Assembly: GCF_964355755.1 (NCBI RefSeq)
Contig: NC_092671.1
Span: forward strand, 1,798,001-1,862,000
Reading direction: 5' to 3'
DNA from: Antedon mediterranea
Taxonomy: Eukaryota; Animalia; Echinodermata
Length of the DNA: 64,000 nucleotides
Shown here: one piece after another, positions 14,109 to 64,000 of the stretch
Layout of the letters: each line of letters starts with the position of its first letter
Numbering within the stretch: the first letter of the stretch is position 1
Program-made: the position numbers and the translations under genes
Notes under the pieces: generated by a model
Told to the model about the DNA's origin: nothing
Database searches by the model: none
Seen by the model: only the letters and a program-made list of their open reading frames with translations

Positions 14109-14113
14109 ACACC

Positions 14114-30314: not shown

Positions 30315-30336
30315 TTTATGAAGATCCAAAAGTTTA

Positions 30337-31326
30337 TAAAAGTAACAACAAAACGGTTTGCATCCAGCTCTCGTGTAGAGCTGTCCATTTTTGGTAGAAC
30401 CTCAGTAGGTTTTGCTTTTGCATCATATATTCTTTGCTTCCACGTTACAATGATAGTATCATCATTAGCTTCTGGTATTTTTGATGGCTTTAATTTGTTT
30501 AAGCCCACAGCATTGTCTGTAATTTGCATAAATCTAGGGAAGATAAAGCTAATGTTTTTATCAGATGCTTGCTCCACAGTAGATAAACATGAAATTGATA
30601 CCTCTTTCAACTGTAAAGCCTTCGTCAACAACTTTTTCCTTTTTTCAAAAGCTTTAGAATTTGACAATTTAATTGTTGAGTTATAGCAGATGGAACTAAT
30701 TTGTTCTTCAGTGTAAGGTATGTCTTGTTGGTTGATAGCTGCATCCTTAAGGCGGTGTACAACTATGTCAATGTAACGTCTTATGGGAGATGTAAAGTGG
30801 GTATAGAAGTCAATTGATCTTGACCCTTGGAAATGCTTTGACCAGAACATTTGTAATCTGACTTTTCTTGTATCATGTTGTAATGTGCCATCATTACAGA
30901 GAGCTTTGGATGTTTATTATCAGTACAAACAATCTGGATAATCTTCATCATTTCAGCAAGACTGGCATCGGAACCTTGCTTGGTATTATTTACAATTTCC
31001 ACCAACTTGTTCCATTCCTGTGTCAGCATTGTAATTGTGTTACTTTGTTCACCGCATTTACATACATTATCACAATTGCACTGTGAAGAATCAACATAGT
31101 CTTTAAACTTCCCTAACATCTCTTTACTATTTCTAATATCAGGTAAGTGTTTGACTTGAAATTCCTGGAGCTTTTCAGGATCAGGTGAAAGTTGCCTTCT
31201 GAGTGGCACAGATTGAGGAAATCTTTCCATCAGATACTCTGCTACAGCTTTGTTTGCAAGAATCATGAATTCTTCAATCAATGAATGTGCAAGAGGATAA
31301 GATACCTCTTCTTCATTTTCATCCTC
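30337..31326 (-). pseudogene. HELZ2: HELZ2-like RNB-domain relic
   Basis: Highly similar to ~43473-44487 (AHSLIEEFMILAN, YTHFTSPIRRY); frameshifting deletion near 30815-30830; both ends truncated. Confidence 0.9.
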
Positions 31327-31334
31327 TCTTTTTA

Positions 31335-31757
31335 TTTTTTTTTTGGTTATCCTTAGTTGCGGATAACCCTTGTGATTGTAAATATCTTTTTTTTCATCTT
31401 CTTCTTTGTTATTAGTTATCCGCTTAGTACATACGTACAATAGTTTCTCTTTCATTTTGGACTCAATCGACTCTTTGGATAGGAAGGCTGCTCACAAACT
31501 ACTGTGTGTGCGATAGGCAGCACAACGAAGCCAAGACTAGCTGCGATTGACGAATTTTGTTGCTCTATTTCAGAGATCATGCAGGTTATTGGATCCCCCG
31601 ATATAGAGAAAATTGAACGAAAACATTATGAAAGGGGTTTTGCTTTTTCAGTTCATAATTATAAGCGGTCGCACCCCTACCCCAACCCAAAAAAGGACAA
31701 TTTCTGGTAACTTAACAGGGCCTTTTATTCGGGTAACTATGGTAAGTTACTTCTAGC
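31335..31757 (+). mobile_element. Small Helentron-type non-autonomous element (tentative)
   Basis: 5' palindrome ggttatcc-ttagttgc-ggataacc (31345-31368); 3' gtaact..agttac hairpin followed by ctag. Confidence 0.4.
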
Positions 31758-32317
31758 ATTCTTAACTGTTGAATTAACACCCGCTTTGAATAAAAGCCTC
31801 CCTCAAATAAACGTCACCATTCCCTCCAATAAAACATCATCTGGAATAAACGCTCCGCCACATGCATTTACAAAATAATTGTATCACAACACATTTCATT
31901 AACTACCATAATCTACAATTTACCAAGCATTTTGACATAATTTTTTGATATTAATTGTGCTGTATTTTTTTACATCTAGGTGGTATTTATTTGATTATAC
32001 ATGTTACCATATTATACCCCCAAAAAAGATGCCTCCCCTCCCCCTAAAAACTCTTTTGAACAATGAATGCCAGGGGCGTTTAATCGGATACACATGGCAA
32101 GTTACTTCTAGCATTCTGAAAAGAACTGTTGAGTTTGACGTTTATATCAAAATGTTCTCGTGGACAGCAATAACTAGTACTTGAAATTGAAACAATTTAA
32201 AGTATCAGTTATTGCATAACATTACTGTCTAAGGATAATGATTGAAAATGCTCATCTGGTTTGTAGGTATAAGTATATTGAAATTATTCTTTTTTCCAAA
32301 CCAATAATTAGTAAAAA

Positions 32318-32370
32318 CTAACCTTGACAGTTTCGCTGTCCTGATCGGACAGCTTCTTCAGAAATAATGA
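32318..32370 (-). ncRNA. Hammerhead-ribozyme-like motif, Penelope-like element remnant
   Basis: Minus strand CTGAAGA-a-gctgtcc-gatca-ggacagc-GAAAC-t-GTC; perfect 7-bp helix II, weak helices I and III. Confidence 0.5.
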
Positions 32371-32582
32371 CGATCTATCATCAAACAGACTGACCTCTAG
32401 AGGGCCTATTCTGTTTAATGTTTAATTCCTCTTGAAATAATTTCTACTGATTTTCCTCTGCCACTAATATTTGAAAATATTAGTGGCTAACTAAAAGTTT
32501 TTCAAAAGTTGTCCACTATCATGGATTTCACGTAAATTTATCAGCGCATATTTATGACAATGACAGATAAGTGGAAGACTAT

Positions 32583-35500
32583 TCATCCTTCTGTCTTGTC
32601 GGTTACTAGTCCTAAACCAAGCTGACGGAAGTAGTCAACAACCTGTTGTAGTTTATCAGTAAATTCAAATGCATCATCAGACTTCAGATTGCCTTTATGT
32701 TTGGTAAGATGCTCTAAAATCTTAACAGGATTTGTACTTTGGTCAGGAGGTTGATCCTCATCAAGCTTTCTTTTTCTTGACGATTGTGATTCATGAACAG
32801 CCTTTTTTGAAGGAGAAGGAGAAATAGAGTTAAGCTTAGAAACCATGCCTGTATACACAGGGTGGGTTCTTGAGTAAGGTGTGTAAGAGAGATTGCATGT
32901 TTTCTTCCACTTTTTTCTATTCACTTTTATATATATTATAATTTTATTTTACTCACCTCTTTGGTATTTTCTGGTACATTTTGGATTCTAAGAATATAAA
33001 AAAAAATCATTATTATTTCTATGATACTGTAAAGCACTGGTACTGAAGCAACCAGCATTACCAAGCATAACTTCACTGGAATATCACACTGTACACCAGA
33101 ACTTTAACAAGTTAAAAGGCATATTGTTATTTGATTACCATGTAACAAGGATAGATATAATTTTCACATAGGTATAGGTTTAAAATGGAGGTATTTTAAC
33201 CAAAGTGATAAATTCAGGTCGATACCCTCCTGTGATACATTTTTTTTCTTTCACATTAAAAGATCTATTAATGCATTGACCAAAAAAAGAATATTTCAGA
33301 ATTTCACATTTAACACATGTCTAGAATTGTCACTCTTACTCAATAAAAGATTTATAATATGAATATGTTTCTTATTGTGGAGAAATGAGTGGAATGTGTG
33401 TATTGATCCTCGAATACTCTATTTTTGAGCTGCTACAACTTTTTAATGTAGCAATTACAAGTGTTTTTACATCCGTATATAATACTGAAATTTGTATTGA
33501 CTGAAAAGCCCTGAATAAATATTTTTTTCATATTTATAGACCCCAGATATTGAAATATAAATTATGAACAATTAGTTTTGTTCATTATAATTTTCTTACA
33601 GTTTACAAGTTAAGCAATGTTGGGCCCAGTTGCATTCTGTATGGGAGATAGCGGTGGGTGCTGTATATACCAGAGAGTGATGGTGTGCTGATAATATCGG
33701 ACTATCAGGTAATAGGCATGGGTTCGAGTCTATCTGTACCATACTGATTGCATTCTTAGGCAAGATGCTTTACTGTCATTGCCTCGTCCTTCGGATAAGA
33801 TAAACCGTTAGACCCCTGTACATATAGTGCACGTTAAAGAGTAGAGGATCGTCTCCCTGTGTGCTGATCTGGTAGGCGCTGCACTGCTGGCTTCCGTGGG
33901 GGAGGGCCTAACCTGAATTTCCTTAGTATCCATTTAAGCTTAAGAATATGTACATTTAACATTTTTTTTTTACACTTTGCAGGTAATTTAAATCGCAAAT
34001 CATCACAAGCCTTCTAAATAAAAAAAAATTGTTGTAATGTTACACTGGATAATAATATGTTGCCCTTTATTTCCACTATTAAAATAATTCCATGTTATTG
34101 ATGGTGTGCCAAAACATAGTGGGTGCCATCTAGTGTACAACTAGGCCTAATTAAAATAAACTCACTCAAGCTGGTCCAACCGCTCAGAAATGCTCCACAG
34201 ACGATCGCTTCGAGCAGCTGGCATTTTATGTCGCCTTAATGACAGACTAATTGGTATTGCAACTTCTGTTGGGCTCTTTGAAACATCTGTATCCTTTTGT
34301 GTGATGGAAGGTATGACATAAGTGTGTCCTGAAATGTGAAATGTCATTATATTAATATAACATTGAGAAGCAATACTGAATCAATTTGGGGTCGGTGCAG
34401 GTGTAAAAATGGACTGAAGTCAGAAACTAAATTTGTTATTTTTTGACCATTGAGTTGGACTAAAAGTTAAATGACAATCAATTTCTTACCTTTCCCATTT
34501 AGCTTATCAAGAGCATCTATGTATATTTGTTGATCAAACTCTGTCTCCCAAGTTTCTTGAAACTCCTGCCGATGTTCGTCTGTAAAAAGTATTCCTGCTA
34601 TATCTTTGAGAAGTTGCCCACTTTGATGCAGTTTAAAGAGATTTGTAAGGCCATTGGGATCAACAAACGTTACATGAAATACTATGGATCCATGTGTGAT
34701 TTCATCAAATTGACATTTACGGAATGTAAGGTAACCTATCAAATTATTCTCTTTGTCATAACATACTGCTCTAATCTCTCCATCCGTAAACTGTCTTTTT
34801 GGAGATGGTAGATCTTCAGAATCTTCAGGTTTGCGTTTTTTTACAGAAAAGGTTACTTGAGCACCTTTAGTAAAAACATATACATTTTCATTAAAACAAG
34901 TTAAATAAGCCTAATGTGTAATGTGATTTTATGAAAGCATCTAAAATGACTCATTGAAACAATCAGTGTGCGATGCATATTCAGTTACTAAAATATTGTA
35001 CATTTAATTATATTAAATTTACAGGAGTAGTAAACAGTAAAAACAAAATACATACAATTGCCAAGTAGATGATTCTTTGCTGTTTGGTTAAGACATTTTG
35101 CAAACCTCATTATTTTGTTTGGTTCATCTTCAAGAAGTTTTTCTTTTTCCAGTTGAAATACCAAATCCCAAGTATTTTGGAAATCACCGGACAATCCGTA
35201 GTGATCAATAATTCGACATAGCTCTTTTTTTTCGACTTCTAGTAATGCCTTAAAGAGACTCCTACGATATTTTGACAGCCTTTTGTGTGCCGAATTTTGA
35301 TTATCTATAATAGCTCTGTCTAAAATATATTTAGTTACAAGGTCCTTTGCTTTTATCAACTCTGAAATGTCTGCTATTTCCCATAAAAGATGAACATCAT
35401 AATGTAGTATACAACCACGTTCCTCTAGTGAATTTAATAACTGATTTCCTGTAGTGGCGCTGAGGTAACTCAAAGGCAGATAATCAAATACACAGAACCT

Positions 35501-35590
35501 TAACCATTTGCATTTGTGAAATTCATATAGTTTACTGAATTCCGTTTTCAAGTCCTTAAACTTCTCATCAGCATCATCGTTAATTGCCAT
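32583..35590 (-). CDS. Gene B: short multi-exon protein with tandem DED-like domains and a TRADD-N-like domain
   Basis: Exons 35056-35590 (ATG 35590), 34490-34864 and 34166-34328 join in frame; the last exon (~32583-32847) parallels gene A; intermediate small exons uncertain. Confidence 0.7.
33680..33960 (+). mobile_element. Duplicated copy of the intronic Deu/Nin-like SINE
   Basis: Paralogous to 21085-21400 with a small internal deletion; boundaries approximate. Confidence 0.6.
35056..35590 (-). CDS. Gene B exon encoding tandem death-effector-like domains
   Basis: KWLRFCVFDYL..GNQLLNSLEERGCI..DVHLLWEI; LSKYRRSLF..TWDLVFQLE. Confidence 0.72.
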
Positions 35591-38593: not shown

Positions 38594-41500
38594 TTACGGT
38601 TTGAAATCTGATGCATGATCAACAAGGCATTTATTTTGCCTGTACATTTGTAGTAATTCCTTCCACTTGGGGTGAGTTTGAAGCAAGTACTGGTTCCCTG
38701 TAAAGAAAACAAAATGTCGTGAGGTAAACCACCAGTGTACTTTTTGTCAATAATTCTTATTTCTAATTCTCTCTTTAATCTTTTTAAAAACTGCCAAAAC
38801 ATAATGTTAGTATTTGTCCCTTCTTCAGCCTATGGTAGTTATGTCTTCCTATACAAGAATTACTTTTGTAAATGAAAAAGGAGCCCAAAACCAAAATTGG
38901 AGAGCTAACTTCTTTCATAGTACTTACCTATAAGAATGAATCCTTTCTTGGCCCTGGTCAGTGCCACATTCATTTGGTTTTCATCAGCTATAAAACCTAA
39001 ATTCATCTTCATCCATCGAATACTTGGTCTCTTTTCAATCTCAACTCTTGGTAATGAACGTACAGTTGACATGATTACGTAATCACATTCACTTCCTAGT
39101 GGATGGAAAATAAATTTGTTTAATGCCAAAAAAAAAAAATTCATAGTATCACAAATTGCGATTTGTAGTTTTGTTTTGAAAAACTAAACACATTATGTGA
39201 ATAAATATCAAACTATCTAAATAAATCTTTTTCGTAATTTGTTTCATCAGATTTTTGATTCCCATATTAGAAAAGTACACATGAAAGTAATCTGGCCACA
39301 GAAGTAAATATGTCTGTTACTAATTCTGTCTGTTCATGTCTAACAAGTTCATGTACATATATCAGAAATGAATTGACCTTGACTGAGTACCACAGTTGAT
39401 ACTTGAACCTCCTCTATTCCACACACTTTCAGATCATCTCTGATTCGTTGACATTGCAAGCGATACTGCGATAGTATCAAAATATCTTTAGGTTTCACTC
39501 CCTTGTCCAGCAGTTTACAAGCAATTCTCACCTACATAACATTTTAATTGACAACATTTAGTATTAAAAGTACAATTTGTATCATAACAGTAATAGTTGT
39601 ACAAAGATTTAGGCCTAAAACTAAATGGTCACTGATCACAAAGCCCATATGTAACAATTAATGCAAACTTTTATAAACACCACACCCATCAACCACCTCC
39701 TCCTGTATACATCAAAGTAGATTACTAACCACATGATACACTTCTTGTGGGTTGCTTTTACTTTGTTCACCTCCCTCTGAGCTGTTAACAGTCAATGTCT
39801 CCTCTTTTCCATACACATGGCAGAACACGGTTGGACAACTGGAACCAGCTGGCCAAAAATTTGTTTCCCAGTTTTTAATTTTGCGATTTTTAACAGAATC
39901 GTCTGTCACCAATTTTTTCTCATAGAAAGCGTTTGATGGAAACTCACAGATCTTTTGGTGCTAAAAGAAATGAAAAAATTAAATGTGAGTAAACACTATA
40001 TAAAACAGACTGGCAGCTCTTGCAATATAGGTGCCTCACTAGTAATAAAAATACTTTTACTTTCAGTTTTTTATTTATATATTTTTTATGTAAATATAAA
40101 TTAAAATAGTAGAGATATACCATTCTGTACTGTATAGTTAACATCATTGTCTTTGCCTCATAACGCTCTAGTAGAGATATACCCATACCTAAATCCTCTG
40201 CATGCTTCTCTTTAATGATTGGTCTGAAAATTAACACAATTATATTATGTAAATAAAATCCAATACTTAAGACATGAAATTTGGCGGAGGGGGTTGGGGG
40301 AAGGTTTATAGACAAAGCGATTCCAGTTTCAGTCATTCGCTTTCATTCTTACCTCAACTGTTTGTGATCTCCAATAAGTACAACTTGGTAAGGTGAACAC
40401 ATAACAAGAGGGATAAGAGACTCAGGTTCACTACACATCCCTGCTTCATCTATGATACACTGTATAATACTGCAGTATTCTGGGATGAATTTTGAACCAG
40501 CTGAAGTGCAAGTTGCTAAGATGATTTTATATTTCTTAAGTTCTTCTTCCTGTAATTATTAAGAAGATTCCAATGTTAAAGGTCATTTTTGTTTGTTTTA
40601 CCAAAGAGAACGTGTAGCACAGTGAACGTTAGACTTCTGATTGCGAGATCAGGAGTTTTAGTGCTTGTAGCATCGCTTGTGCCCTTCTTAGCAAAGACGG
40701 TTTAAATTTAAATTTACCTTTGCTGAATTTATCAGTTGATGATATGATTTTCTTTTTTTTTTAGGAATGACATCACCTGGTATCAGTTGTCGAAAATCTC
40801 GATCAAACTTGCATATTTCGGCACTCTTAGAATTGTCACCGGTCCTGATGAGATAGTGTAATGCAATGTTGACATGGTCAGGGTCAGTAGAGGTCAGTAT
40901 ATCAGCTTTTTTCCCAACGTTTTTCTCCCATGGCAACGGAAAATCTTTCTTCTCAATAGTTTCACTGTAAACTCGAACAATAGATAATCCTGGAAACTTT
41001 TTTAAATAACCTAATAATAAAACAAACATTTACTCTGGTGAATTGTGAGCAGTAAGATTCATAACATACTCCATGAATGCACTGAATTTATATACATGAC
41101 CAACAGCGTTCTAAGGACAAGGCAATAAGAAGAAAACTGCTTGCTTCTAACAGGCCACAAACAAAACTATACAGTGGTGGTCTTTGTCTCTATGTCTGAT
41201 TTTCAAAGTATTATATAATCAAATTATTAATTACATCATCAGTTAAAAAAGATTACCTGCAACAACATCAACAGACTTGTTAGATGGGCCGCAGTAGAGC
41301 ACCTGTGGCTGCCCTTTGCCAGTAGGTTGTATTTGTGTGTTCATCTCTGAAAAATAGTATGCAAGTTGCGCTCCTGTCACAGATTTTCCAGTTCCTTAAA
41401 TAAAAATAAAATCTTTAAGCTCTTTTGAACACTCAAAAAGTTGACTTGATTAATTTAAAATGATTTCTGGTACAAAATGTTATGTTAATGTTGATAGGGT

Positions 41501-44500
41501 CAATGTGTGTAACAATGCAATGACATCCTACTTACCTGGCGGTCCCTGTATAAATGTAAATGGTTTTGCCAAAGCTGTCTTTATTGCCTTCTCTTGGACA
41601 TCATTTGGTGGTGGCAAATCTACACCTTTTATCTTCCCAACTTTTATTCTTTTTGCAATTTCAACAAGTCTATTATAAATTGAACCTAAAAAGAATAAAT
41701 ATGTCTTGTTGAAGATTAATTCAATTATTTTAAATTAGGAAATAGAATTTTAGATATTAATACAACACCATTTTTAAACAATAACATTAATACTCACTAT
41801 CTTCTTGTCCTCCCACCTTAAACTTTTTAAGAAGAACAATATCTCTGTTTAATGAAGATTTATTTTCACTTAGGCCTTTCACAGATCTTTCAAGACGTCT
41901 TTGAATAAATTAAACAATTGAAATACTGTAATTAATTGGTAAACATTCCTAAAAATGATTCACAAATAGACATTTTTCATCAAAACAGGTAAAAGGTATA
42001 CACTACAGTTATCCATGCTACCACTACTACTAATAATAATAATAACAACAATAATAATAATAATCAAAAGTTTATAATGTGCTAATTTCCAAATAAATGA
42101 TCGAAGGTGCATTGTATCCTGAACTTTGCTAACTACATGAGTTTTTAAATTAATTTTAAGTGAATCAAAAGTGGGATGAATGTTTGCAAAAAGGTGGGAG
42201 TTTGTTCCAAAGAGTGATGCAACAAAAAAAATGTGCGTTGAGGAACAAATAGCAATGATTTGTCAGAAGAGCAAAGGCGACGAGATGGAACATATCAAAG
42301 AATATATAAGATGGACGGACAAAAAATAGAGCTTTAAAAGTTCAAACAAGCATCATGAAGATAAACATTGTTTAATGAAGGTCAGTGATAATCTGGAGTG
42401 ATATGATGACGGCATGGTGTAAAGTGAATATACTTTCGAAGCACATACTATTTATGAAGGCAGTAATTTATTGTTCAAACTAACTTTTCTGATTCTCCTT
42501 GTGGTATGAGCTCAAGAATACAAAGTGGTTTCTTCTTTAGCTTTGTGGAGATGACACTATGTGGCAGTGTGGGGCTCTTTCCAATGCCAGACTGGTTTAA
42601 TCTTATTCCAATTTCCATCTGTACTTCTTTAACTTTGACATTTCTTATATAGCAATGGCCAACCCAAGTACACTTAACTTCAGAGCGATTCTGACTTAGA
42701 TTTTTGTGTGGTATGTCAATACCAGAATAGCGAACACATAAATAATCTGATGGATTAAATCTGAAATTCAATTTTATGAAATATATTAACTTCATATAAT
42801 CTCTTCAGGCATGTCAAGACATTTTAGTACTGCAAGTACAATATATATTATTTGGAACTTTTTGAATTGTAAAAAAATATAAATACCTTATACTTCGGTC
42901 CTCACAGAAATCAGTCGGTAGCTGAAACACACCATTGTAAATCTGTTTATCTGAAACAAATTTCCAATCGATTGATACATTTCGTATGATGAGGGTATCA
43001 TCTTCAGATACAGCATTTGATGCAGATTCCATTGATAGCACTGCCAACCAACGTTCCTGATATGTAGGTATGTCCTTTGCATCTCTGGGTTTCTTATTTG
43101 CTAACTGAGAGAAACATGTAACAGGATCAGAACGATGATCTAGACATATGTCCAGTTCAGGTGTCAAGTTGAAGAGTTGGATTTTAGGTTCAGGAATTCC
43201 TCGCTCAAATCCTGCCATAAGCTTAACTTCAACCATGTGCCCTAGATTGTATTCTCTTTCAAACTCCACAAAATGGTATCTGTTTCCATGCTGATCTAGT
43301 ATTTCAGATGTCAATTTTTTTTTCAACAGTTTTCCATTCTCACTTTTACCCATAGTTCTTTGGTTTTTTTCTTTAGTTTTAATTTCTTGGGAAGCAACAT
43401 ACATGGCAGCATGAATTTGATGGATATCGTCATCTTCAATTCCAGAAAGAATTTCTTGCCAATGAGTACTGTTAAAAGTAACAACAAAACGGTTTGCATC
43501 TAGTTCTCCTGCAGAGCTGTCCATCTTTGGTAGAACCTCAGTAGGTTTTGCTTTTGCATCATATATTCTTTGCTTCCACGTTACAATGATAGTATCATCA
43601 TTAGCTCCTGGTATTTTTGATGGCTTTAATTTGTTTAAGCCCACAGCATTGTCTGTAATTTGCATAAATCTAGGGAAGACAAAGCTAATGTTTTTATCAG
43701 ATGCTTGCTCCACAGTAGATAAACATGAAATTGATACCTCTTTCAACTGTAAAGCCTTCGTCAACAACTTTGTCCTTTTTTCAAAAGCTTTAGCATTTGA
43801 AGACTGAATTGAACAATTATAGCAGATGGAACTAATTTCTTCTTCAGTGTAAGGTATGTCTTGTTGGTTGATAGCTGCATCTATAAGGCGGTGTACAACT
43901 ATGTCAATGTAACGTCTTATGGGAGATGTAAAGTGAGTGTAGAAGTCAATCTCAAGGGAATGATGTGCCAGATCTCGACCATCGGAAATGCTTTGACCAG
44001 AACATTTGTAATCTGACTTCTCTTGTATCATGTAGTAGTGTGCCATCATCACTGAGAGCTTTGGGTGTTTAGTATCAGTACAAACAATCTGGATAATCTT
44101 CATCATTTCAGCAAGACTGGCATCTGAACCTTGCTTGATTTTATTTACAATTTCAACCAATTGGTTCCATTCACGTGTCTGCATTGTAATTGTGTTACTT
44201 TGTTCACCGCATTTACATACATTATCACAATTGCACTGTGAAGAATCAACATAGTCTTTAAACTTCCCTGCCATTTCTTTACTATTTCTAATATCAGGTA
44301 AGTGTTTGACTTGAAATTCCTGGAGCTTTTCAGGATCAGGTGAAAGTTGCCTCCTGAGTGGCACACATTGAGGAAATCTTTCCATCAAATACTCTGCAAC
44401 AGCTTTGTTTGCAAGAATCATGAATTCTTCAATCAGTGTCAGTGAATGTGCAAGAGGATATGACGCCTCTTCTTCATTTTCATCCTCATTGTATGAAAAT

Positions 44501-47500
44501 CTACCTTCTTTAAGGCGAGCTGCACGAGTCTTCTGAGCTAATTCATTCAGTTTATTAATTGCAGTTACAATAGATGGTTTTACATCATTATTTCCATTAT
44601 GAATGATGTCTTCTACTTCTTTGTACGTGAATTTTTGTCTGGAATGAATGACCGATTTCACTATTTTTGTGTCAGAATGTAGACCGTCGTTTCTTATGTC
44701 CATAAATATAGACATTGTTAATCTATCCTTTCCTGGAATTAAACTGCAGAAGTCATTACTAAGTCGTGATGGCAGCATGTTGATGGGAGCTGAAAGTGTT
44801 GGATAATATGTAGTGGCTCTCTTCTGTACCTCTTCATCAAGCATTGTTTTGTTTCCTACAAAATAGCTGACATCAGCGATATGAACGCCTACTTCATAAT
44901 GATTATCAGCAAGTCTATGTATGCTAAGTGCATCATCAATATCTTGACAACCCTTGGGGTCAATACTGAATGTTTCAGCTTTTCTGAAATCAGTTCTCTC
45001 TTTTATTTCATCTTCTGGAATTGTCCAATTTTCAGAAAACTTCCTGTCAAGTTCTTCACGAACTTTTTTCTTCCAAGTATCTCCAACATCATGTATAAGC
45101 TTTAGAATTTTAATCCCCTCTGCTTTGTTAGTGGCTGGTGGCAGCTCTTCTGTAACAAATCCCATTGGATACGTCATTTTATCGGGCCATTTCCAATAGC
45201 GTACTACAAACAGTTTATGAAGACGGTCCTTGTTGGTTACCACAACGTTGCGTTCTAAGTAAAATGGCTTATCACTGTTGACCTGTTTACTTAAGATGTA
45301 TATGTCTACAGTAACATCCTCACTCGGTGATTTGTTTTTGTCCTTTGTCTGTATGCAAAGTTTTGGAAAGTCTTTGTTTACAGGTACCATAAGGCTGTTA
45401 CTATGCTGATCTAGCATGCATACCAGTTTACGCAAATATGGGTTTGATGCTCTTTTCAAGACATGGACAACCCTACCATACATTTTGTCAGGCTTGTTTT
45501 CTGGTTTATCACTTAATTCATCAATTTCAACTTCTTCTAGAATTTCTTTATTCTCTTGCATTTCTATAATTACGTCATCATTGTTTAAAGCACGCCCTCT
45601 GTTATGCTTACTGATGATTGAAATATTCATTGGAATATCTTCCTCTAAAGTGGTAGCATATGTCTTTCCTTGAACATTAAGATGGAATTTGCATCTCTTG
45701 TATTTTTCTGGTTCTGATTCAAGCAGTGGTTCATATTTCTTGTCTTGATCTAATTCTTCGCTACTTATGTCGGTGTCTTCTGGATCATACTCTTCAAAGA
45801 ATTCAGAACCTTGAAGATTTGAATGGTCTTTTTCTGGAACAAATAACTTCTTAGCAATTTCTTCTAGCTCTTTTTTTTCATAAAGAGTGGTTCTTTGTTT
45901 TGTTAACTCAATATTTGCTTGTACATGATTTATGTCCTCACTTTCTTTGTCCAATTTCTGATTCGAGGGTTCATGACTTTTGGATTCTTTCAAATTTGAT
46001 AATGTTCTTTTTTTATTTCCAGAAAACAAGTCATCTGTTTCCATTACTTGCTTAACTTGTCTCCTAGGCTCTTTCAGAATTGAATCCTCAATTTTTTTCA
46101 TATCAATTTCTTCTTCATCTTCTGACTGCCAGTGTTCATTTTCGTCACCTTCTGGAACCTCCAAAAATAAGTTAAAATCACCAATGACAAAGTTTTCAAC
46201 TTCATCTACACCTACTGTGGATAAAAGCGGAAAATCCTCACTAGTCTGTCTTGTTGTTTTAACCTCTGCAGACTTCTTTCTCTTTGAAGCATCAACAGCT
46301 TTTTTTCTGACAGATGGGTTAAAGGGAGTAGCAAAGGGATTAAGTCCAATATTCATAGTCTTGGTGTTTCTACGTATTTGCTGAAGGTTTAAATTGCTTG
46401 GATGCAAACTTCTGTGTTGTTCACATTTGTGGAGGAACTTTTCCCACACTTTTGAACAATCACCAATAGAACACATGGTTATAGGATCCCCAACAACCAC
46501 CAGGAGCGATTTTGCTCTTGTAAACGCAGTGTTTAACAGCTTTTCATCAGAAAGAAATCCATAGTAAAATTCTGCACTTTCAACCGGATTACTATATTTG
46601 GCTGTGACATGTGTCCTTTCAAGTGTTGCTCTTGTTCGCACAACACTGATGAACAAGGCCCGAAATTCTTTACCTTTACAAAATAAATAATATATAATAT
46701 TGTAATAGAATAAAAGGAAATTTAACAGAATCATGTAGCATATGGTCTAGAATAGAATACCTTGTACATTTCTCACGCCTTCAACGTTCACATCGTGCAA
46801 CTTGCGTTTTCTGAGTTCTTGCCGAATTTCACGCACCTGAAATTATGTTAAATTTTATGTTAAATTATGTTTATCTGCATACATTCACCCCTGGTGATCA
46901 ATTAAAACCAAGTGGGATAGACGTACCTGTGATTTGTATGGTGTAACAACACCAATATCTTTCTTGTCTCCCCATTCTGGTGGCCAGTTGTGATAAAGAT
47001 CTGCCACTCGTATTCCAATCTCTACTACTTCATCTCTATTACAATATGATGTTTCTATGAAATGATCTTGGCCCCTGACTGCATAAAACGATAACGGGTA
47101 CATTGTTGGGTGTGATTGATGTTTATTCATTGAAAGTAGTTTGGTTTTGTAGAACGTTGTCGATACAAATGACAAAATTTCTTCACAAGTTCGGTAGTTT
47201 ATATGCAGAAATATTGTGTTTTTGTCACCCGTGATATTGTAATGATCATGTAGGCGTTTAAGAATAGATTTATCAAATCCACCGATGCGTGCCTCTTCGG
47301 AATAAACCTACAGAAATAATATTGTATTTTATACATATAAATTGGGAGACTTATGTAATAATAAATGTTGTATTACTGTTATTGGAAACATTTTGGGATG
47401 CTTTGGTTCTATCCCTCTATTTCAGGGCTCCTTGTTTAAGGTGACAACTTATTGTAATGATTTAATATGCATAGGCCTAACTCCTAAGCCCTCATGACAC

Positions 47501-50500
47501 AAAAGTGTTTTGTGTAAACACACCATTGTGAAACTTCTTTTTTTTAATTTATTTATAAATTACCTTTGGGCTCATTTGAATATGATCACCAGCAATTGCT
47601 ACACATGTCTTCCTCTCTGCCATTGCTAACGGCATGATAGCTTGAGTCTCTAATGCTTGACCCGCCTCATCAATTAGTATCTGTGTGAAATGGCCTTTCA
47701 AGTTCAGTCGTACTAAAGTCAAAGCCATATTAAGGGTACAGATGACAACTCGAGATCTCTTCACATCATTTCTAGTTGGTAGATTGATTGTGTTTGTGGT
47801 TTTGTCAATCAGACAATACTTCTTAACATCTGGATGTATGGTTTTAATGCGTCGTTCAGTTTGATACAAACGAAGTAGTGTTGGTTTGAGACCTCTACGT
47901 TTTGGGTAAGTTTTGATATAGTCATCTAAATGTTCAGTAATGTACAGATCTGCCCCACTAAGAAATAGAATAAAGACATTAAATAAAATGTCATACCATA
48001 CCCACCTCTATCATTTTAGCTGTTATATATATTAATTTTTATTACAAACCTATTGGACATGGTGCAAATCAAAACCTTGGTACCGTGTTTCAGGAGGATC
48101 TTCTTTACAGACTCTGCCATGGTTCTTGTTTTTCCTGTACCAAACGGACCATATATCACCAATGGTGGCTTGCTAATTGCTGTAGTTCCTGCCATACGCA
48201 TATACTCTATTGCTTGTTCTTGTTTCTCGTTGAGGACGTCAGTAGACAAACCAGGTGGAATAGCCAGTGTATATCCTTGTAATGGTAATACAGATTCCAT
48301 GTTTTCCAAGCTATCAATTGCATAGTGCATCTCACAGAAAAGTAAGCGGTCAACCTGGAACTGAACTTCGACATGTATTTTAGTTTTTGCTTCAAGTTTG
48401 AGATTTTCTACAAATTTTGCATTCAGCTTAACGTAGATATAATCTTTTGTATGACCATCGATTCCTTCATCAGATATGATTTTAAGTTCATAAGCTTCAT
48501 TTGATTCTGAATCAAATTTGCACAATACACTTTGTACAGACTCCATGATTAGCAGACTTGATTCAACGTCACAATTTAGAGTTTCTGTTAATTCTATTTT
48601 CCCATAGAGTTCACCATTTTGAGCAATAAACAGTTCAGTACCAGTATAAGATTCAACCGTGACATTATTTTCAATTTCCATCTCTGTTTTTGTCTTGAAC
48701 CTTCAATTAAGAAAACATGTTTTTTAGTATTCAAAATTGTATTCACTTACTAACTAGTTTACAGTATATTACATAAATTTCAAATTTTTTTTGCATATTT
48801 TGTCCTTCTGTAGTATTATTGTAATCGCTACGCTATTGCTTCGCATTGCTGACGCAATCGAGAGAGCTCCTTGAATAAAGAAAAATTGCGGTGGTTGGCG
48901 AATCACACAATCAACTTTTTCAGAATATCTAAGTTGTTTGCATGGACAATCTAGAAGCATTTCTTTGTATATCGAGTATTGCTGACAGGCATCATGACTG
49001 TAAACAGTTTAGTGATTATATTAATATGAGTAGCAGATAAGTATCTCTTGTCTGACCCTAATTTTCTCTTATTATTTCTGTCTTCATTAGTGTCCCTGAT
49101 CTAAAAATCTAAAAATCGTCTTGACAATAGTCAGCTACATACAGTCTGAACAGTTTGAACGAAATTGGGTGACTATACCTGTTAATCATTTTCATTCTAT
49201 CTCTTTCCTCCAAATTCACCATCTGGTGCATTCTATGTTTGTAATTCTCCTGAGTTAGCTCACTTTCATTCAAGTAATCAATATTTAGATTGGCACCAGG
49301 TGGCTTGTATTTCTTTAAGAGATCCTTGTCACATGGACTAGGTTGAGTTGATGTGACTATCTCTGTATTACTTGTGTCCCAAATAATGATGGACTGACGT
49401 TCACTCAACTGCTTCATGTATTCTTCTTTTGCACCGACATGAACATTAAGTTTTCGAACCATAACTGGCTTCTTCCCAAAATCAAAGACAACCCATTGAT
49501 GGAAGCTTCCAAGCTTGTTGCTGGCGAAATGTACATCTATGCTGTATGTACTGAATGTACCTTCCTTTATAATCATATTTCCAGGGCAAACCTGGGGTTT
49601 ATCTTCATGTTTTGGTTGTGACAAAAAAAAGTGAAAGCGATGTTCATCGTATAGTAAGCTAACACGTTTTAGTCTTTCTACCTAAAGATTTAGTAATAAG
49701 ACATATGTTTTTAGCCATATTATATTTCATTTAATATTTCTTTTTTTTTCATTTTTTAAGTTTCGAAATATTAAGACCAAAGCCAACGAAAGTAAGCATT
49801 TTAAATTGAATAACATTGATATTGTTTGAGCCCTTGAAAACACTATTAAGCAATTCCCTTTAAAATTTGAAATCGAGCACACTGCTACTGTGTAATCTTG
49901 AAATTAAGAAACCTTCACTTACACCTCCAATACACTCCACTTGAAACCTCCCGCAGTCTTTAAATACGTTGTCAGACTTTCTTTCAAGCTCATCAATAAA
50001 ACAGTCATGTTCTGTATCACAGTAAATCCGAATATTTGGTAATTCCTTTTCAGTCATCTAAAAAAATTGAGTAGTGTAGGTTACACTCATTATATTAATT
50101 AATGAACCTGCTTAGAACAAAGACTATATATACTATATATGCAGATAGTGATCTTGTTAATAAAAGACCAAGTACTCAACATTTAATTTTTATTGTTTAC
50201 ATGTATAATTTTCTTCAATCAATTGGCAAGTCATATATTGACTAGTTTATTGGGTCTAGTATTATCATATAAGTAGTTTAGAGGCCGTGACTACTCAATA
50301 TGGTAGTCAAATCTTGAATACTAGGTCCCCTTAATTATTGCTTACTTAATTTCAAGTACAGTATATTACTATAATAATATGTTTGTAATTTTCTTACCAC
50401 TTTGACGCTGGAAGTTGCTGAGTTGTACTCAATCATGAGTTGATCCATGAATAAGAAGAGTTTACCCAGCTTGGCTTTTTCTCTTTTCATCAGTCGATAT

Positions 50501-53475
50501 TCATGTCGTTCTTTCCATTCTTCCAATTCTTCTTGCGTATGTGCCTGCATGCACTGGTAGTTAGCTGAGTCTTCATTAGAGTGTCTGGTATTAGTGAAAA
50601 AAAATATGTTTTAGTGTTTAAAATAAATGTATTGAGGTGTTATTACAACAGTATAATAAATACAATTATAGTAAACAATATGCAAGACTCAAGAATAATC
50701 CAGCAGTTCTTTTCTTGGTTTCTGTACATTTAACTGTGAGAAAAAAAGGTTTCTACAATTGAAACTGAAGTGAAAGGAGCCAAATTGTAATATACTTTAC
50801 CTATCGCACATAACGTATAGACCATTGACAATATCAAGAGGTGGACTTCGATGTTTCCAATTTCTGTCTGTGTCGGAGGTAATACACTGGTTGTGTTCCA
50901 AATTGCTGACATGGGAGACTAGTGATTCAAAATCCATCTCGCAATAAGAACAATGGTAATTTACAGGCACATGTTGAGGGCATGTTATTTGTTGATTAGT
51001 TTCCAGATTTGCTGGTACGCCTACTGCAACTGGTGCAGTAGAGGCAATAGACTGAGTAGATAGTTGAGCCTCACCGATAGGCAGAGGACTTAAAGAAGTC
51101 TGTTTGACTTCTTGCATCTCATCCTGTTCACAAAGTACACTCCTAAATGAAATTTCAAGTTGTCGACATTTGTGCAAGCAGGCGGGTTCTACTAACGTTC
51201 TATTTTTGTTTCCAGATTGTGGATCTTCATCGAGCTGTAATTATTACACGAAAAGTTGAAAATAAACATAACACAATGTTGTGGTTTTTTTTATACATTT
51301 TTCACAATTGGATACTTTCATTGTCATGTTTACCTTACTGTTTGAATTTTCTAAACCAGAAGCTGTAACAGTGTTTTCGGATGTATTTGCTGCAGTGGTA
51401 TGTCTTTTGGTACTAGCACCTACATAAATAGAATACAATTTAATAGATGTAAACTTTAAGGGCTTTCTTTTTAACTCATTTTGATATTACCACCAATCAT
51501 ATTACGTTTTGTGATGTTTCCTAAGTATGTTGTGCATATAATAATCTAAATTTTCTACATTGAATATTTTAAAAAATCCAAAAGGAAGGTTTAATCTATC
51601 GTTTTGCATGAATAGGTCTTAAAAAAATTGCAAACAGAAAACTGCATTTCGTGGCAAATTAAGCACCCAAATCAGCTCATTGCTCTGTGCATGCATTGTC
51701 ACAACAAATACATAACTATAATAATTATATAGCCATCAGATCACTGAATTACAAATAAAGGCGAACAGTTTGCGGATTAGTTTTTAGGAATTTTGTGTAT
51801 GTACTGTTTTCTATATATGTTTGAAATGAATGAATGAATACATAGGCAATGAACGACGTATTTAAATGTTAGGATTGGTGTGATTTCACTTTTAATATTA
51901 TGCTCTATGGTTTTAAGTTCTGTTTATCCATTTTTTTCTCCCTAGCCTAATAAGCAAAGTCATGATTTTGTTGCTATTCATGAACAGTAAAGTCACTCTA
52001 ATGTCATTATCGTAATTAAGGTAGACTCACACAAATTAATTTCTCACCTTTTCTGCTTAGCTTATCAAGAGCCTCTTTGTATACTCCTTTATCAAACTGT
52101 GTCTCCCAAGTCTGCTCAAAGTCCAGTTGGTGTTTCTCTGTAAAAAGTATTCCTGCTATATCTGTTAAAAGTTGCCCACTTTGATGCAGTTTCCAGAGAT
52201 TTGTAAGGCCATTGGGATCAACTAAAGAGACATGAAATACTATGGATCCTTTTGATAAGTGAAAAGCTTCACAACGGCGGAATAAAAAGTAACAAGTAAT
52301 TTCTTTCAGTTTGCCATAACATAATGCTAAAACATCTTCAAGAATTATTCTGTTACTTTTTTTAGATGGTAGTTGATCTTCAGAATCTCCAATTTTTTGT
52401 TTAAAAAATATCTGTATTTCAGCACCTGCGGTAAAACATTTAGACATTAATCAATTTTAAACAAAAAATGTTGATTGAAGAAGTGAGTGTCAAGTGGCTT
52501 GACAACATCATAACAAAATATTAATCTTTATTTCAATAAATACACTGATTGTCTATGGTTGTATTGAGAATACAAACACAAAAATAATGAACACTGTACA
52601 TTGTATTGTAAAAATATATCAACAAATTGTTTGAAGGTTTGCATGGCAAACAAACACTAGTAAAGTACACCATGTGGAAAATATATTTAGTAAAGCTAAG
52701 AATGCCCCAAAGTTTTGTTTGTTGCACTAAAACTGACTTAGTAATTCATAATTGTTCATCACCTGGCAGGCTATGAATCAAGCAAAACCAGGCTTGTTGG
52801 TTGACACTAAGATAACAAAATTACAGTTGGCCAAAATATTAGCCTCACTCTTTGTGTCATAACAATATAATACTGTAAATGCATCCATTTTCATGTTTTT
52901 AAATGATATAATTTATACAAAAATAGAAAATACGTACTAATGCCAAGTAAATGATTCTTTGCTGTTTCACTGAGAGATTTTGTAAACCTCCTTATTTTTC
53001 CTGGTTTATCTTCTAGAAATTTTGCTTTCTCCAGATGAAATATTAAATCCCAAATATTTTGGAAATCATTGCTTAACTTGTAGTAAGAAATAATACCACT
53101 TAAGCCATTTGTTCTGACATCTCGTAATGCCTTAAAGAGGCTTTTCCGATATTTTGATAGCTTTTTATTGGTCGTTTTTTGACCATTTGTAATACCTCCA
53201 TCTGACATATACTCGGTTACAAGTTCTTCTGCGCTTTGCAAATATGAAATTTTAGCGATTTCTAATAAAAGATGAACATTATTATGGCTAATATAACCAG
53301 CTTTCTCTAGTAAATTTAATAATTGAATTCCAGAATTTGTAGCAGCGAGGTCTTCTGAAGATATGTGCTCAAATAAAAAGAATCGCAACCATTTAAATTT
53401 GTGAGGATCACTGTACATTTTACTGAAGTTAGATTTCAAGTCCATGAACTTCCTATTAGGATCATTGTTTGCCAT
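38594..53475 (-). CDS. HELZ2: Gene C: HELZ2-like helicase/3'-5' exoribonuclease with N-terminal tandem DED-like and TRADD-N-like domains (23 coding exons, ~3154 aa)
   Basis: Exons 52938-53475, 52048-52425, 51334-51419, 50801-51234, 50398-50584, 49923-50057, 49179-49681, 48050-48700, 47564-47957, 46927-47307, 46761-46836, 42887-46673, 42485-42760, 41798-41898, 41536-41685, 41257-41394, 40718-41010, 40353-40549, 40121-40223, 39730-39960, 39378-39531, 38928-39095, 38594-38697; all GT-AG and phase-compatible, total 9465 nt. Motifs GPFGTGKT/DEAGQ/LNTAFTRAK, SIDPKGCQDIDDA, GPPGTGKS/DEAGM/MNVALTRAK. Confidence 0.88.
42031..42450 (-). mobile_element. Degenerate L2/CR1-like LINE 3' fragment in a gene C intron
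   Basis: Minus strand encodes a TLWNKLP-type RT C-terminal motif and ends in an (att)n tail. Confidence 0.5.
42887..46673 (-). CDS. HELZ2: Gene C large exon: end of helicase 1, acidic linker and RNB (RNase II/R family) domain
   Basis: GKEFRALFISVVRT, RGRALNNDDV, TFSIDPKGCQDIDDALS, GVHIADV, EEFMILAN, YTHFTSPIRRY. Confidence 0.93.
52048..52425 (-). CDS. Gene C exon encoding a TRADD-N-like domain
   Basis: SKGSIVFHVSLVDPNGLTNLWKLHQSGQLLTDIAGILF; phase-1/phase-1 exon. Confidence 0.65.
52938..53475 (-). CDS. Gene C first coding exon, tandem death-effector-like domains
   Basis: KWLRFFLFEHISSEDL..SGIQLLNLLEKAGYISHNNVHLLLEI; LSKYRKSLF..IWDLIFHLE. Confidence 0.75.
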
Positions 53476-57529: not shown

Positions 57530-60500
57530 TTAAGGTTTGAAATCTGATGCGTGATCAACAAGGCATTTATTTTGCCTGTACATTTGTAGTAATTCCTTCC
57601 ACTTGGAGTGAGTTTCCAATAGGTACTGGTTACCTGTAAAGAAAAAAAAGGTTATTAAGTGCACTTTTTGTCAAAAATAAATTATTAGTATCGTCCCTCT
57701 TAATCTTTGTTGGCTTGATTGTAGTCATGTCGTGTGATAAAAGAATTACTTTTTTTAATGAAAATGGAGCCCAAACTTTGTCCTTGTCACTATTTCTTTA
57801 TTATCTCATAGTACTTACCTATAAGAATGAGTCCTTTCTTGGCTCTGGTCAGTGCCACATTCATTTGGTTTTCATCAGCTATAAAACCTAAATTCATCTT
57901 CATCCATCTAATACTTGGTCTCTTTTCAATCTCAACTCTTGGTAATGAACGTACAGTTGACATGATTACGTAATCACATTCACTTCCTAGTGGATGGAAA
58001 ATAAATTTGTTCAATGCCAACAAAAAAATTCATAGTATAACAAATTGCGATTTGCAGTTTTGTTTTTCTATTTATGTTCATGGAGAGAAACTAATCACAT
58101 TATGTGAACAAATATCAAACTATCTAAATAAATCGTTTTCGTAATTTGTTTCATCAGTTTTTTGATTCCTATATTAGAAAAGTACAGATGAAAGTAATCT
58201 GGCCACAGAAGTAAATATATATGTTACTTCTGTCTGTTTATGTCTAACAAGTTCATGTACATATATCAGAAATTAATTGACCTTGACTGAGTACCACAGT
58301 TGATACTTGAACCTCCTCTATTCCACGCACTTTCAGATCATCTCTGATTCGTTGACATTGCAAGCGATACTGCGATAGTATCAAAATATCTTTAGGTTGC
58401 ACTCCCTTGTCCAACAGTTTACAAGCAATTCTCACCTACATGAAATAAAAATTGACAACATTTATATATTAAAAGTACACCTTGTATCATAACAGTAACA
58501 TTTGTACAAAGATTTAGGCCTATAACTAAATGGTCACTGATCACATTATGTAGCAATGCAAACTTTACACCCATCAACCCCTTCCTCCTGTGTACATGAA
58601 AGTAGATTACTAACCACATGATACACCTCTTGTGGGTTGCTTTTACTTTGTTCACTTCCTTCTGAGCTGTTAACAGTCAATGTCTCCTCTTTTCCATACA
58701 CGTGACAGAATACGGTTGGACAAATGGAACCAGCTGGCCAAAATTTCCTTTGCCAGTTTTTAATTTTGCGATTTTTAACGGAATCGTCTGTCACCAATTT
58801 TTTATCATAGAAAGCGCTTGATGGAAACTCACAGATTTTTTGGTGCTAAAAGAAATGGAAACATTAAATGTGAGCAAACACTATAAAAACAGCATGGTTG
58901 TACTAATGGCAGTTCTTGCAATATAGCAATATGTTGCATTTTTTATCGTATTCCTTTTGAAATAGAAATTAAAATAGTAGACTTACCATTCTGTACTGTA
59001 TGGTTAACATCATTGTCCTTGCCTCATAACGCTCTAGTAGAGATATACCCAGACCTAAATCCTCTGCATGCTTCTCTTTAATGATTGGTCTGAAAGTAAA
59101 TGAACACAATTATATTATTAAATAAAATCCAATACTCACATGAGGACTGGGTGTGAAATCTGGTGAAAATGAGGATAATACTCGATTTACAACAAGGAAT
59201 TTATCAATGTCTTGTGTTCGAATTTAGCCTTATTTAAAGAGAAGGTTGGGGCGGGTTTATACTCGGTCATAGACAAAGCGCTTCCCAGTTTCAGATTGAC
59301 ATTTCATTCTTACCTCAACTGTTTGTGATCTCCAATAAGTACAACTTGGTAAGGTGAACACATAACAAGAGGGATAAGAGACTCAGGTTCACTACACATC
59401 CCTGCTTCATCTATGATACACTGTATAATACTGCAGTATTCTTTGACACAATTAGAACCAGCTGAATTGCAAGTTGCTAAGATGATTTTATATTTCTTAA
59501 GTTCTTCTTCCTGTAATTATTAGGAATAATATATACAGTAATATTTTCAAAAATGCAATAACAACTGATTTTAAAATTGTCAATCATTTTATACAAAAGT
59601 CTCATTTGAGTAAAATTTGGGTTTACCTTTGCTGAATCTATCAGTTTTAAATATCTTGATCTTGTTTCCTCAGTAACGACTGTTTCTGGTCTCAGACGTC
59701 GAAATTCTCGATCGAGCTTGCATATTTCAGCACTCTTAGAATTGTCACCGGTCCTGATGAGATGGTGTAATGCAACGTTGACATGATCAGGGTCAGTAGA
59801 GGACTGTATATCAGCTTTTTTCCCGACGTTTTTTTCCCATGGCAATGGAAAATCTTTCTTTTCAATAGTTTCACTGTAAACTCGAACAATAGGTAATCCT
59901 GGAAACCTTTTTAAATAACCTAATAATAACAAAATGACAATTACTTGATGAATTGTTGAGCCTTTGACAAGTCATAGAATTAAGAATACTATTAGAAGCA
60001 CTAATAGTAAACAATTTAATACTCTTTTCTAATTAGTGTACAGCTAAATTGTTCCTAGTGTATTTATATAAACTCAACCAATATCCCATTCAAACGACTA
60101 GAGAAACGCTGCTTGAGAATCAAAACTGCAGACATGTCTCGACTTTTTGTCACGTTACTAAAGCGATTTGTTCGATATGGTCGTTGTTTCATGTTCCGTG
60201 ACTTGCTACATTTATTCATTTTGTCATCTTATTCATTACTATGCCCTGCAGCTGTACTTTTTTCTGCATTTTTACTTTATTTTTTCAACTTTTATCTACT
60301 GGTATTATGTTTATTTTTATTTTTTTTCATTATTTTTAATTGATTAATTTTTTATTTATCTTGCCTTCGTCCTTTTTCTAAATTATCTCTTGTCATTATT
60401 GTTTTGTTACTTTTATCTTTTGGATGTAAATAAATGTTTTTTGAATTGAATTCAATTTTCTCTAGCACTCGTCGGACTCCTACCTGTACCTTAAGGCAAT

Positions 60501-63500: not shown

Positions 63501-64000
63501 AGGATCTGGAGAGAGCTGCCTTCTGAGTGGCACACATTGAGGAAATATTTCCATCAAATACTCTGCGACAGCTTTGTTTGCAAGGATCATGAATTCTTCA
63601 ATCAGTGAATGTGCAAGAGGACATGATGCCTCTTCTTCATTTTCATCCTCATTGTATGAAAATCTACCTTCCTTAAGGCGCGCTGCACGAGTCTTCTGAG
63701 CTAATTCATTCAGTACATGAATTGCAGTTACAATGGATGGTTTTACATCATTGTTTCCATTATGAATGATGTCTTCTACTTCTTTGTACATGAATTTTTG
63801 TCTGGATTGAATCACAGATTTCACTATTTTTGTGTTAGAATGTAGACCGTCATTTCTTATGTCCATAAACACAGACATTGCTAATCTATCTTTTCCTGGA
63901 ATTAAACTGCAAAAGTTGGTACTAAGTCGTGATGGCAGCATGTTGATGGGAGCTGAAAGTGTTGGATAATATGTAGTGGCTCTCTTCTTTGCCTCTTCAT
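57530..64000 (-). CDS. HELZ2: Gene D: second HELZ2-like paralog, 3' part (RNB and helicase 2); 5' end lies beyond the window
   Basis: Large exon 62050->64000 parallels gene C; downstream exons (e.g. 61455-61718, 61078-61172, last exon 57530-57633 ending DFKP*) keep gene C intron positions. Confidence 0.88.

Follow-up and report, generated by a model that had tools for sequence, protein, structure and literature searches.

A probable fusion of tandem death-effector and TRADD-like N domains to a HELZ2-type helicase/exoribonuclease in the crinoid Antedon mediterranea

HELZ2 proteins combine two RNA helicase domains with an exoribonuclease. Here, we describe a HELZ2-type gene from Antedon mediterranea that appears to begin with a tandem death-effector domain (DED) and a TRADD-like N domain (TRADD-N). 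The gene lies at 53475..38594 on the minus strand of a 64,000-nt stretch of DNA, “the window” (RefSeq assembly GCF_964355755.1, contig NC_092671.1, positions 1,798,001 to 1,862,000); all coordinates below are those of the window. It is highly probable, from two database models and the splice signals, that the exons belong to a single spliced crinoid gene. Four minus-strand units of this kind lie in the window: the 3' end of copy A, the gene in question (copy B), and copies C and D.

The gene and its domains

There is evidence from several sources for a single gene. The exon chain, rebuilt by script, has 23 exons that run from an ATG at 53475 to a TAA at 38596-38594 and comprise 3154 codons with no internal stop. 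All 22 introns have GT..AG ends, and the reading frame of ~9.5 kb is intact across them, in agreement with a preliminary description made from the DNA letters, which had proposed a phase-consistent 23-exon chain. The two junctions that attach the 5' exons (52938/52425 and 52048/51419) are both in phase 1. Splice sites were scored with a matrix derived from 19 downstream introns, against a background of all GT and AG sites in the gene. By this measure, the donor and acceptor of intron 2 (628 nt) fall at the 97th and 99th percentiles, those of intron 1 at the 81st and 96th, and those of intron 3 (99 nt) at the 99th and 83rd. A splice acceptor also lies just ahead of coding exon 1, and a 5' untranslated exon is therefore probably present further upstream.

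The single-gene reading, which the preliminary description had favored, is supported by the RefSeq model of this gene and by a second Antedon paralog, P0005. The RefSeq model, P0002 (XP_071943708.1, “HELZ2-like”), is the top match to the RNB region; it has both key junctions and the same 5' exons joined, and is 100% identical to the present model over residues 1-2517 and from residue 2627 to the end. The identity over residues 1-2517 means that the NCBI pipeline made the same DED, TRADD-N and HELZ2 joins. P0002 omits 110 residues (exon 13 and part of exon 14) that are conserved in a neighboring copy, and this segment is kept in the present model. The P0002 entry carries no DED call, as would follow from the fact that Pfam mostly misses crinoid DEDs.

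Sequencing reads also bear on the locus. In run X3, a single DNA contig covers 51197-53488, placing the DED, TRADD-N and first HELZ2-side exons next to each other in DNA, which argues that their adjacency is not an assembly chimera; runs X1-X3 are one sample, possibly the assembled one. Spliced RNA is represented by run X5, whose contigs show presence only and for which 15 of 25 joints are listed. Among the joints listed, matches were found to 6 of the 22 intron positions (49179/48700, 48050/47957, 47564/47307, 46927/46836, 42887/42760 and 40121/39960). None of the 15 falls at 52938/52425 or 52048/51419, and cover is so thin that this is evidence neither for nor against those junctions. Two short RNA contigs fit this copy almost exactly: the first lies inside exon 4 and has 3 differences over 195 nt, and the second lies inside exon 12 and has 1 over 226 nt. 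One further X5 contig has the end of a TRADD-N exon joined to a HELZ2-derived exon at 34327, which is evidence, from this single contig, for splicing of the module onto HELZ2-type sequence in at least one of the copies.

Coding exon 1 (52938..53475) carries the ATG and the two DEDs (DED1 at about residues 6-93, DED2 at about residues 108-177). Pfam matches the exon to DED with E=1.3e-6 and 28.9 bits, below the curated cut-off of 35.9. A profile made from 51 sequences of the family, with a shark caspase-8 match left out, finds human caspase-8 with E 3.9e-9 across both DEDs, followed by cFLIP and FADD. The AlphaFold model of the exon has 11 helices (pLDDT confidence 93.5), and its best Foldseek match is the human caspase-8 tandem DED (TM score 0.72, E 3.9e-5). 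All of the top ten matches are caspase-8 tandem-DED or caspase-8/cFLIP assembly entries, with TM scores of 0.71-0.74 (0.70-0.74 for caspase-8 chains); 7 of the 248 matches have E<=0.001, and cFLIP and vFLIP/MC159 are also among the matches. As modeled, exon 1 is a true tandem DED with the two domains packed as in caspase-8, so the DED-like repeats that had been noticed earlier are indeed predicted death folds. The likeness to the caspase-8/cFLIP prodomain extends to a conserved inter-DED motif, although identity is ~16% and there is no caspase domain. Phe-Leu pairs and an RxDL charge triad have a role in caspase-8 filament assembly; with the family consensus mapped onto this protein by eye, the hydrophobic pair of DED1 is Phe-Phe. 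The ratio of nonsynonymous to synonymous substitution rates (dN/dS) for the DED exon is 0.43-0.50 in all three pairs among copies B, C and D, and a ratio of this size indicates that the DED pair is under purifying selection.

Coding exon 2 (52048..52425, phase 1-1) encodes the TRADD-like N domain, in which a basic loop follows the first strand. Its top two matches in the ESM Atlas are TRADD-like_N clusters (score 0.94, 216-219 shared features), and clusters of vertebrate TRADD score only 0.77. Among the 90 proteins of the RNB-region search described below, the family profile picks out the Pfam-passing TRADD-like_N of coral and amphioxus proteins with E 3e-6. Pfam alone is weak on this exon (E 0.08-0.11), and PF20694 reaches E<=0.1 in 4 of 16 family members. 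The exon has the sequence signature of the domain (GS and a hydrophobic strand, then a helix) and an RRM/ACT-like alpha+beta fold, with a structure model of pLDDT 77. Foldseek returned no match at E<=0.001 for the exon: the matches are ferredoxin/ACT-like folds, with the TRADD-N structure 1f2h at rank 22 (E 0.59, TM score 0.41), and the TRADD-N profile found nothing relevant among PDB sequences. From the ESM Atlas and the family profile, the domain is classified as the TRADD-like/DEDD2 kind rather than that of vertebrate TRADD. The TRADD-N-like assignment made previously is thus upheld by these two comparisons, and the associated suggestion of TRAF2 recruitment finds no support, Pfam having found neither TRADD_N (PF09034) nor a C-terminal Death domain in the protein. 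Within exon 2, positions 52330-52410 encode a pair of basic clusters in a disordered loop that resembles the consensus for a bipartite nuclear localization signal (NLS); the pair is strong in copies C and D and in P0005, and weaker here.

The module is followed by a Ser/Thr-rich linker to the HELZ2 part (exon 3, 51334..51419, identical in P0002). Exons 4-5 (50398..51234) encode further linker, a shortened C2H2 finger (residues 429-448) and a degenerate C3H finger, so that the zinc fingers reported in the preliminary description can be located but both are degenerate. A MOV10-like accessory region (residues 542-900; exons 6 to part of 8, 48235..50057) precedes the first helicase; it gives a weak match to MOV-10_Ig-like (E 0.036) and is 67-75% identical to Antedon paralogs. 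The remaining domains follow in the order expected of HELZ2, in which two Upf1-like superfamily 1 (SF1) helicases flank the RNB domain. Helicase 1 occupies about residues 910-1345 (exons 8-12, 46404..48234), with Walker A at 938, Walker B at 1065 and motif VI at 1302. The HELZ2 OB-fold or cold-shock region (residues 1565-1664, exon 12, 45445..45744) matches PF25049 above its cut-off (OB_HELZ2, E 2.9e-15 and 7.3e-15). The RNB domain, an RNase II/R-type 3'-5' exoribonuclease domain (residues 1814-2190, 43867..44997), matches PF00773 with E 6e-81 and 1.7e-80. Exons 13-14 (41798..42760) encode the post-RNB region, including the segment absent from the RefSeq model (exon 13 and the start of exon 14), and exons 15-23 (38594..41685) encode helicase 2 (about residues 2670-3123) and the stop codon. 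Pfam finds AAA_11 and AAA_12 twice, and each helicase has Walker A, Walker B, motif III and motif VI. All four Asp of the RNB motif D-P-x4-D-x-D-D (residues 1826-1835) are kept, and motif IV is intact, confirming the earlier account of two SF1 helicases around an RNB domain with its acidic motif. In an RNB tree made by a quick method from 27 chosen rows of the 90 search matches, the four Antedon copies form a short-branched clade (support 100) that is sister to three Anneissia copies (support 99). The catalytic part is a true HELZ2.

Human HELZ2 (PRIC285/PDIP1) has a zinc-finger region, helicase 1, a cold-shock/OB region, RNB and helicase 2 in the same order. The Antedon protein differs in its N-terminal tandem DED and TRADD-like N domain and in its degenerate fingers. 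According to one report, the human enzyme is an interferon-induced 3'-5' RNase that degrades structured RNA in an ATP-dependent manner, with Asn at the second catalytic aspartate (PMC10516660), where the Antedon protein has the canonical Asp. A second report describes restriction of LINE-1 (L1) by human HELZ2, mostly via helicase 2, and a dampening of the interferon response induced by L1 RNA (PMC9839780).

Relatives of the fusion and of its adaptor module

The fusion is confined to one species among the proteins searched. The RNB-region search returned 90 proteins of 2208-5000 residues among 2316 candidates. A tandem DED is present in 2 of the 90, P0002 and P0005, both from A. mediterranea. 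The pair is found in none of the three tetrapod or teleost matches, nor in any other non-Antedon match among the 90. A search with residues 1-305 against proteins of 1674-5327 residues, among 2119 candidates, returned the same two only. With the DED exon against proteins of 315-2000 residues, a range too short to include the fusion, the sole match among 1658 candidates was another A. mediterranea protein, the model of copy D. P0005 has the same domains in the same order as the present gene, with a module that is 54-55% identical and a different linker; P0002 and P0005 are 65% identical, and both retain the fusion.

A TRADD-like N domain is more widely attached to HELZ2, being present in 5 of the 90 proteins. 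The other three are GT4 + TRADD-N + HELZ2 proteins: P0059 (Oculina), P0067 (Montipora) and P0068 (Branchiostoma). Like the Antedon protein, they have TRADD-like N ahead of a full HELZ2 with RNB; unlike it, they have a GT4 enzyme in the place of the DED pair, and no DED match. In the RNB tree they fall within the HELZ2 clades of their own hosts, which suggests separate captures. These coral and amphioxus proteins might have had a death fold hidden between their GT4 and TRADD-N domains, and neither the crinoid DED profile nor Pfam found one. In P0058 (Dendronephthya), ankyrin repeats accompany a HELZ2 core.

The DED pair has a much wider range of partners. A profile of the module finds 102 proteins among 1.84 billion representatives, and none of the 101 other than the query has a HELZ2 core. 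The 66 that were scanned include NACHT-LRR proteins of the NLR type, Roc-COR GTPases, kinases, TRIM/NHL, TIR, ZU5-UPA and PARP14 proteins, a very large GTPase and two caspases; many of them pass the Pfam DED cut-off. Ten hosts were checked: eight of the proteins are from A. mediterranea, one is from Anneissia, and one is a shark caspase-8. The DED pair is a mobile crinoid module. The proteins P0099-P0199 form a large, mostly crinoid-looking tandem-DED family; for example, P0099 has four module repeats with a Roc GTPase, and P0100, P0101 and P0128 have DED pairs with a doubled TRADD-N and ubiquitin, TRIM/NHL or LRR. One member, P0175 (XP_071950579.1), is an A. mediterranea protein annotated as “caspase-6-like”. 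It has a tandem-DED prodomain of the crinoid family, uncalled by Pfam, and a QACR motif, and is probably an initiator caspase.

The general theme of death folds and TRADD-N on RNA helicases and RNases is already published; the combination of DED with HELZ2 and RNB is a new variant of it. In Kaur et al. 2021 (PMC8195603), lineage-specific expansions in invertebrates combine a constant DED + TRADD-N region with variable effectors, among which Mov10, DDX60, RLRs and several RNases are named. Its supplement lists CARD+TRADDN+RLR helicase, Death+TRADDN+DDX60, an Amphimedon CARD+DED+TRADDN+Ankyrin+YafQ+two SF1 helicases protein, and Stylophora GT4+TRADDN+HELZ or MOV10. The Antedon protein shares with these families the constant death fold and TRADD-N placed before a variable antiviral or RNA-directed effector, and differs in having as its death fold a caspase-8-like pair that lies within a single exon. 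The searched text of that paper (12 of its 13 files, one of these partial) contains no RNB row and no DED+TRADD-N+HELZ2 protein. No description of a DED + TRADD-N + HELZ2/RNB fusion was found in the full-text literature, a corpus with most subscription journals outside its coverage. The earlier impression of an undescribed architecture therefore holds for this combination and not for helicase and RNase fusions as such, which PMC8195603 tabulates.

What the fusion may do

What might such a protein be for? We put at about even the chance that it is an activating sensor-effector in which attack on foreign RNA is coupled to cell-death or immune signaling. In this scheme, the tandem-DED + TRADD-N adaptor module would stand in for the tetratricopeptide repeats (TPR) and most zinc-finger exons ahead of a HELZ2 with intact motifs. 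By homology with human HELZ2, the two helicases would unwind structured RNA and the RNB domain would degrade it 3' to 5'. Several molecules loaded on one viral or retrotransposon RNA could then cluster their tandem DEDs. Clustered DEDs could nucleate homotypic assembly with the crinoid DED family (caspase P0175, DED-bearing NLRs and kinases), and this assembly could trigger cell death or immune signaling, with TRADD-N offering a second adaptor surface. FADD and caspase-8 had been suggested as the proteins recruited. The partners are more likely to be the crinoid family's own tandem-DED proteins, of which caspase P0175 is, by its domains, the obvious candidate. A complex prediction for the tandem DED and the P0175 prodomain scored 0.00 in both runs, in which no alignments were used and the controls were not folded.

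RIG-I and MDA5 signal from a tandem CARD attached to an SF2 helicase, and the comparison with RIG-I drawn in the preliminary description is a fair one. In both arrangements, an RNA helicase carries a tandem death-fold adaptor at its N-terminus; the Antedon protein has DED for CARD, two SF1 helicases for one SF2, and an exoribonuclease of its own. A domain scan found no tandem CARD, SF2 helicase or RIG-I C-terminal domain in it, and the resemblance to RIG-I-like receptors, being an analogy, is functional only. In vertebrates, HELZ2 is known solely as an effector. A bolder version, which we hold only tentatively, is that crinoid HELZ2 acts as a pattern receptor in the manner of RIG-I, with SF1 and RNB domains as its scaffold: RNA-polymerized DEDs would plug into a network of ~100 DED proteins, including a caspase, and trigger death, and the repeated, separate captures of adaptor modules (DED+TRADD-N in Antedon, GT4+TRADD-N in corals and amphioxus) would imply a latent sensing ability across the HELZ2 family.

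If the protein is expressed and signals, there would be several implications. First, a death-fold module would turn an RNA-degrading helicase into a sensor, a third route beside RIG-I-like receptors and NLRs. Second, one could test directly whether HELZ2 singles out foreign RNA. Third, the analysis exposes a large crinoid tandem-DED family mostly missed by Pfam. Fourth, the candidate caspase provides a handle on cell-death signaling in crinoids, an echinoderm class whose immunity has been little studied. The surprise is limited by the general theme being in print.

A number of observations weigh against a working sensor made as one protein. P0002 and P0005 are automated models, and P0002 is flawed by its 110-residue skip. 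The long X5 RNA pieces differ by ~8-16% from this copy, so they confirm the exon structure in paralogs or distant alleles other than this copy. The module also exists as short stand-alone proteins (P0001 and P0092), and read-through of the exon 2 donor meets a stop in intron 2 after 10 residues, so a short isoform is possible. The fusion is in one species only, and the module is in none of the three Anneissia HELZ2 models. The dN/dS of the TRADD-N exon is 0.72-1.11 among copies B, C and D, with little sign of constraint. Relative to paralogs P0003 and P0004, the C2H2 finger is 3 residues short, a deletion common to P0005, and the C3H finger lacks 7 residues, including the second Cys. Lastly, in a family alignment to caspase-8 mapped by eye, Ser-Tyr takes the place of the exposed Phe-Leu pair in DED2 and there is no RxDL, which argues that any assembly would not simply repeat the caspase-8 filament.

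The last of these points is also what would be expected if the module of a single protein were a guard, a decoy or a brake, firing only on attack by a viral antagonist or protease, or sequestering DED partners as cFLIP and vFLIP do. In the brake variant, the cell would survive while clearing RNA. The FLIPs among the fold matches, the fast evolution of the TRADD-N exon, and the dampening of L1-RNA-induced interferon by human HELZ2 noted above all fit such a role. The best matches in both sequence and fold are to caspase-8, though, above the FLIPs, and the same module heads many sensor-type proteins, as an output domain would; we consider the guard, decoy or brake unlikely.

Alternatively, the locus might hold two transcription units or main isoforms, a short DED + TRADD-N adaptor and a separately initiated short HELZ2, with the fusion an artefact or a minor product. 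The models of copy D and the stop 10 codons into intron 2 are consistent with this, as are several relatives that end just past the TRADD-N exon, the ATTAAA hexamers that intron 2 contains, and Met codons in frame at residues 374 and 434. Nevertheless, introns 2 and 3 are short (628 and 99 nt), and intron 2 has a strong donor and a strong acceptor, both in phase 1. Intron 2 contains no AATAAA, and ATTAAA is common in DNA of 33% GC. Moreover, the fusion is modeled again in the second paralog with another linker, and no exons like those downstream in copies C and D were found after exon 2 in this copy. Two separate products are, on balance, distinctly improbable.

There is also little chance, in our view, that the module is a DEDD2-like localization or scaffold unit that directs HELZ2 into the nucleus or nucleolus to act on retrotransposon or nuclear RNA, with no death signaling. 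DED + TRADD-N is the architecture of nucleolar DEDD2 (PMC8195603). The bipartite-NLS-like basic pair lies in the TRADD-N loop of copies C and D and of P0005, and many relatives have a basic cluster there, but the first cluster is weakened in this copy, and DEDD2 has one DED where this protein has a constrained caspase-8-like pair. A recent, near-neutral by-product of tandem duplication and exon shuffling, with a functionless module in a copy starting to decay, would suit the truncated or broken copies C and D, the single young clade of four Antedon HELZ2 copies, the degenerate fingers and the TRADD-N dN/dS near 1, and is very unlikely given the intact 9.5-kb frame, the full set of catalytic motifs, the DED dN/dS <0.5 and the two 65%-identical paralogs that keep the fusion.

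The paralog array and other features of the window

The neighboring copies offer clues to how the activating sensor-effector considered above, or whatever else the fusion may be, came about. Copy A (57533..64000, minus strand) is the 3' part of P0003, cut by the window end and 100% identical over 650 residues; the database model has an N-terminus of the TPR + zinc-finger type. Copy C (30275..35590, minus strand) has a tandem-DED exon, a TRADD-N exon, two exons like the TPR-HELZ2 start, a broken second TRADD-N and a frameshifted RNB fragment, and is likely a broken fusion gene. Copy D (19879..23168, minus strand) has the layout of C without the RNB fragment, and RefSeq models it as a short tandem-DED + TRADD-N protein with two isoforms (P0001 and P0092, 366 and 443 residues), so it may yield a short free adaptor.

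In copies C and D, the module is spliced to an exon whose end matches the start of P0003 and P0004. The P0003 start in turn matches a profile of the conserved N-terminus, built from 15 non-Antedon TPR-HELZ2 rows (sea stars, urchins, hemichordates and amphioxus) with E 4e-16; the match of the short copy D piece alone to the TPR-HELZ2 N-terminus profile is insignificant. In P0005, part of the linker aligns to residues 677-708 of P0003, an inner linker of the TPR type (E 1e-8), and the present gene joins the module further down and lacks the upstream CCCH repeats and TPR of P0003 and P0004. These sequence matches are most simply read as the splicing of the module onto the 5' end of HELZ2, followed by the loss of differing amounts of the TPR and zinc-finger exons from the various copies. 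The fusion would be recent and lineage-restricted, having arisen in the tandem array. The exon in which copy A (P0003) and P0004 start is an internal one in copies C and D, so these two may likewise have unannotated tandem-DED + TRADD-N exons upstream.

The broken second TRADD-N exons of copies C (32494-32948) and D (19879-20497) share the place of a stop and of a frameshift and are 94% identical in DNA, as against only ~73-80% for the DED and first TRADD-N exons of the same two copies. This contrast suggests recent gene conversion or a shared truncation.

The window also contains mobile elements. A long terminal repeat (LTR) retrotransposon lies on the plus strand at 4804-18034, with 233-nt terminal repeats that are 99% identical (4804-5036 and 17802-18034) and matches to reverse transcriptase, RNase H and integrase. 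It is interrupted by a second element, which has a 1006-residue pol open reading frame on the minus strand (9763-12783) and a gag-like one on the plus strand (12857-13993), so the inner element is partly inverted; short repeats occur at 9356-9560, 12684-12784 and 13982-14116. Genes with TRADD-N of the DEDD2 clade are often near retrotransposons, according to PMC8195603. Degenerate repeat blocks complete the picture: a tandem array at 531-2089 and, between copies C and D, direct and inverted copies of a ~350-nt element at 25837-30279.

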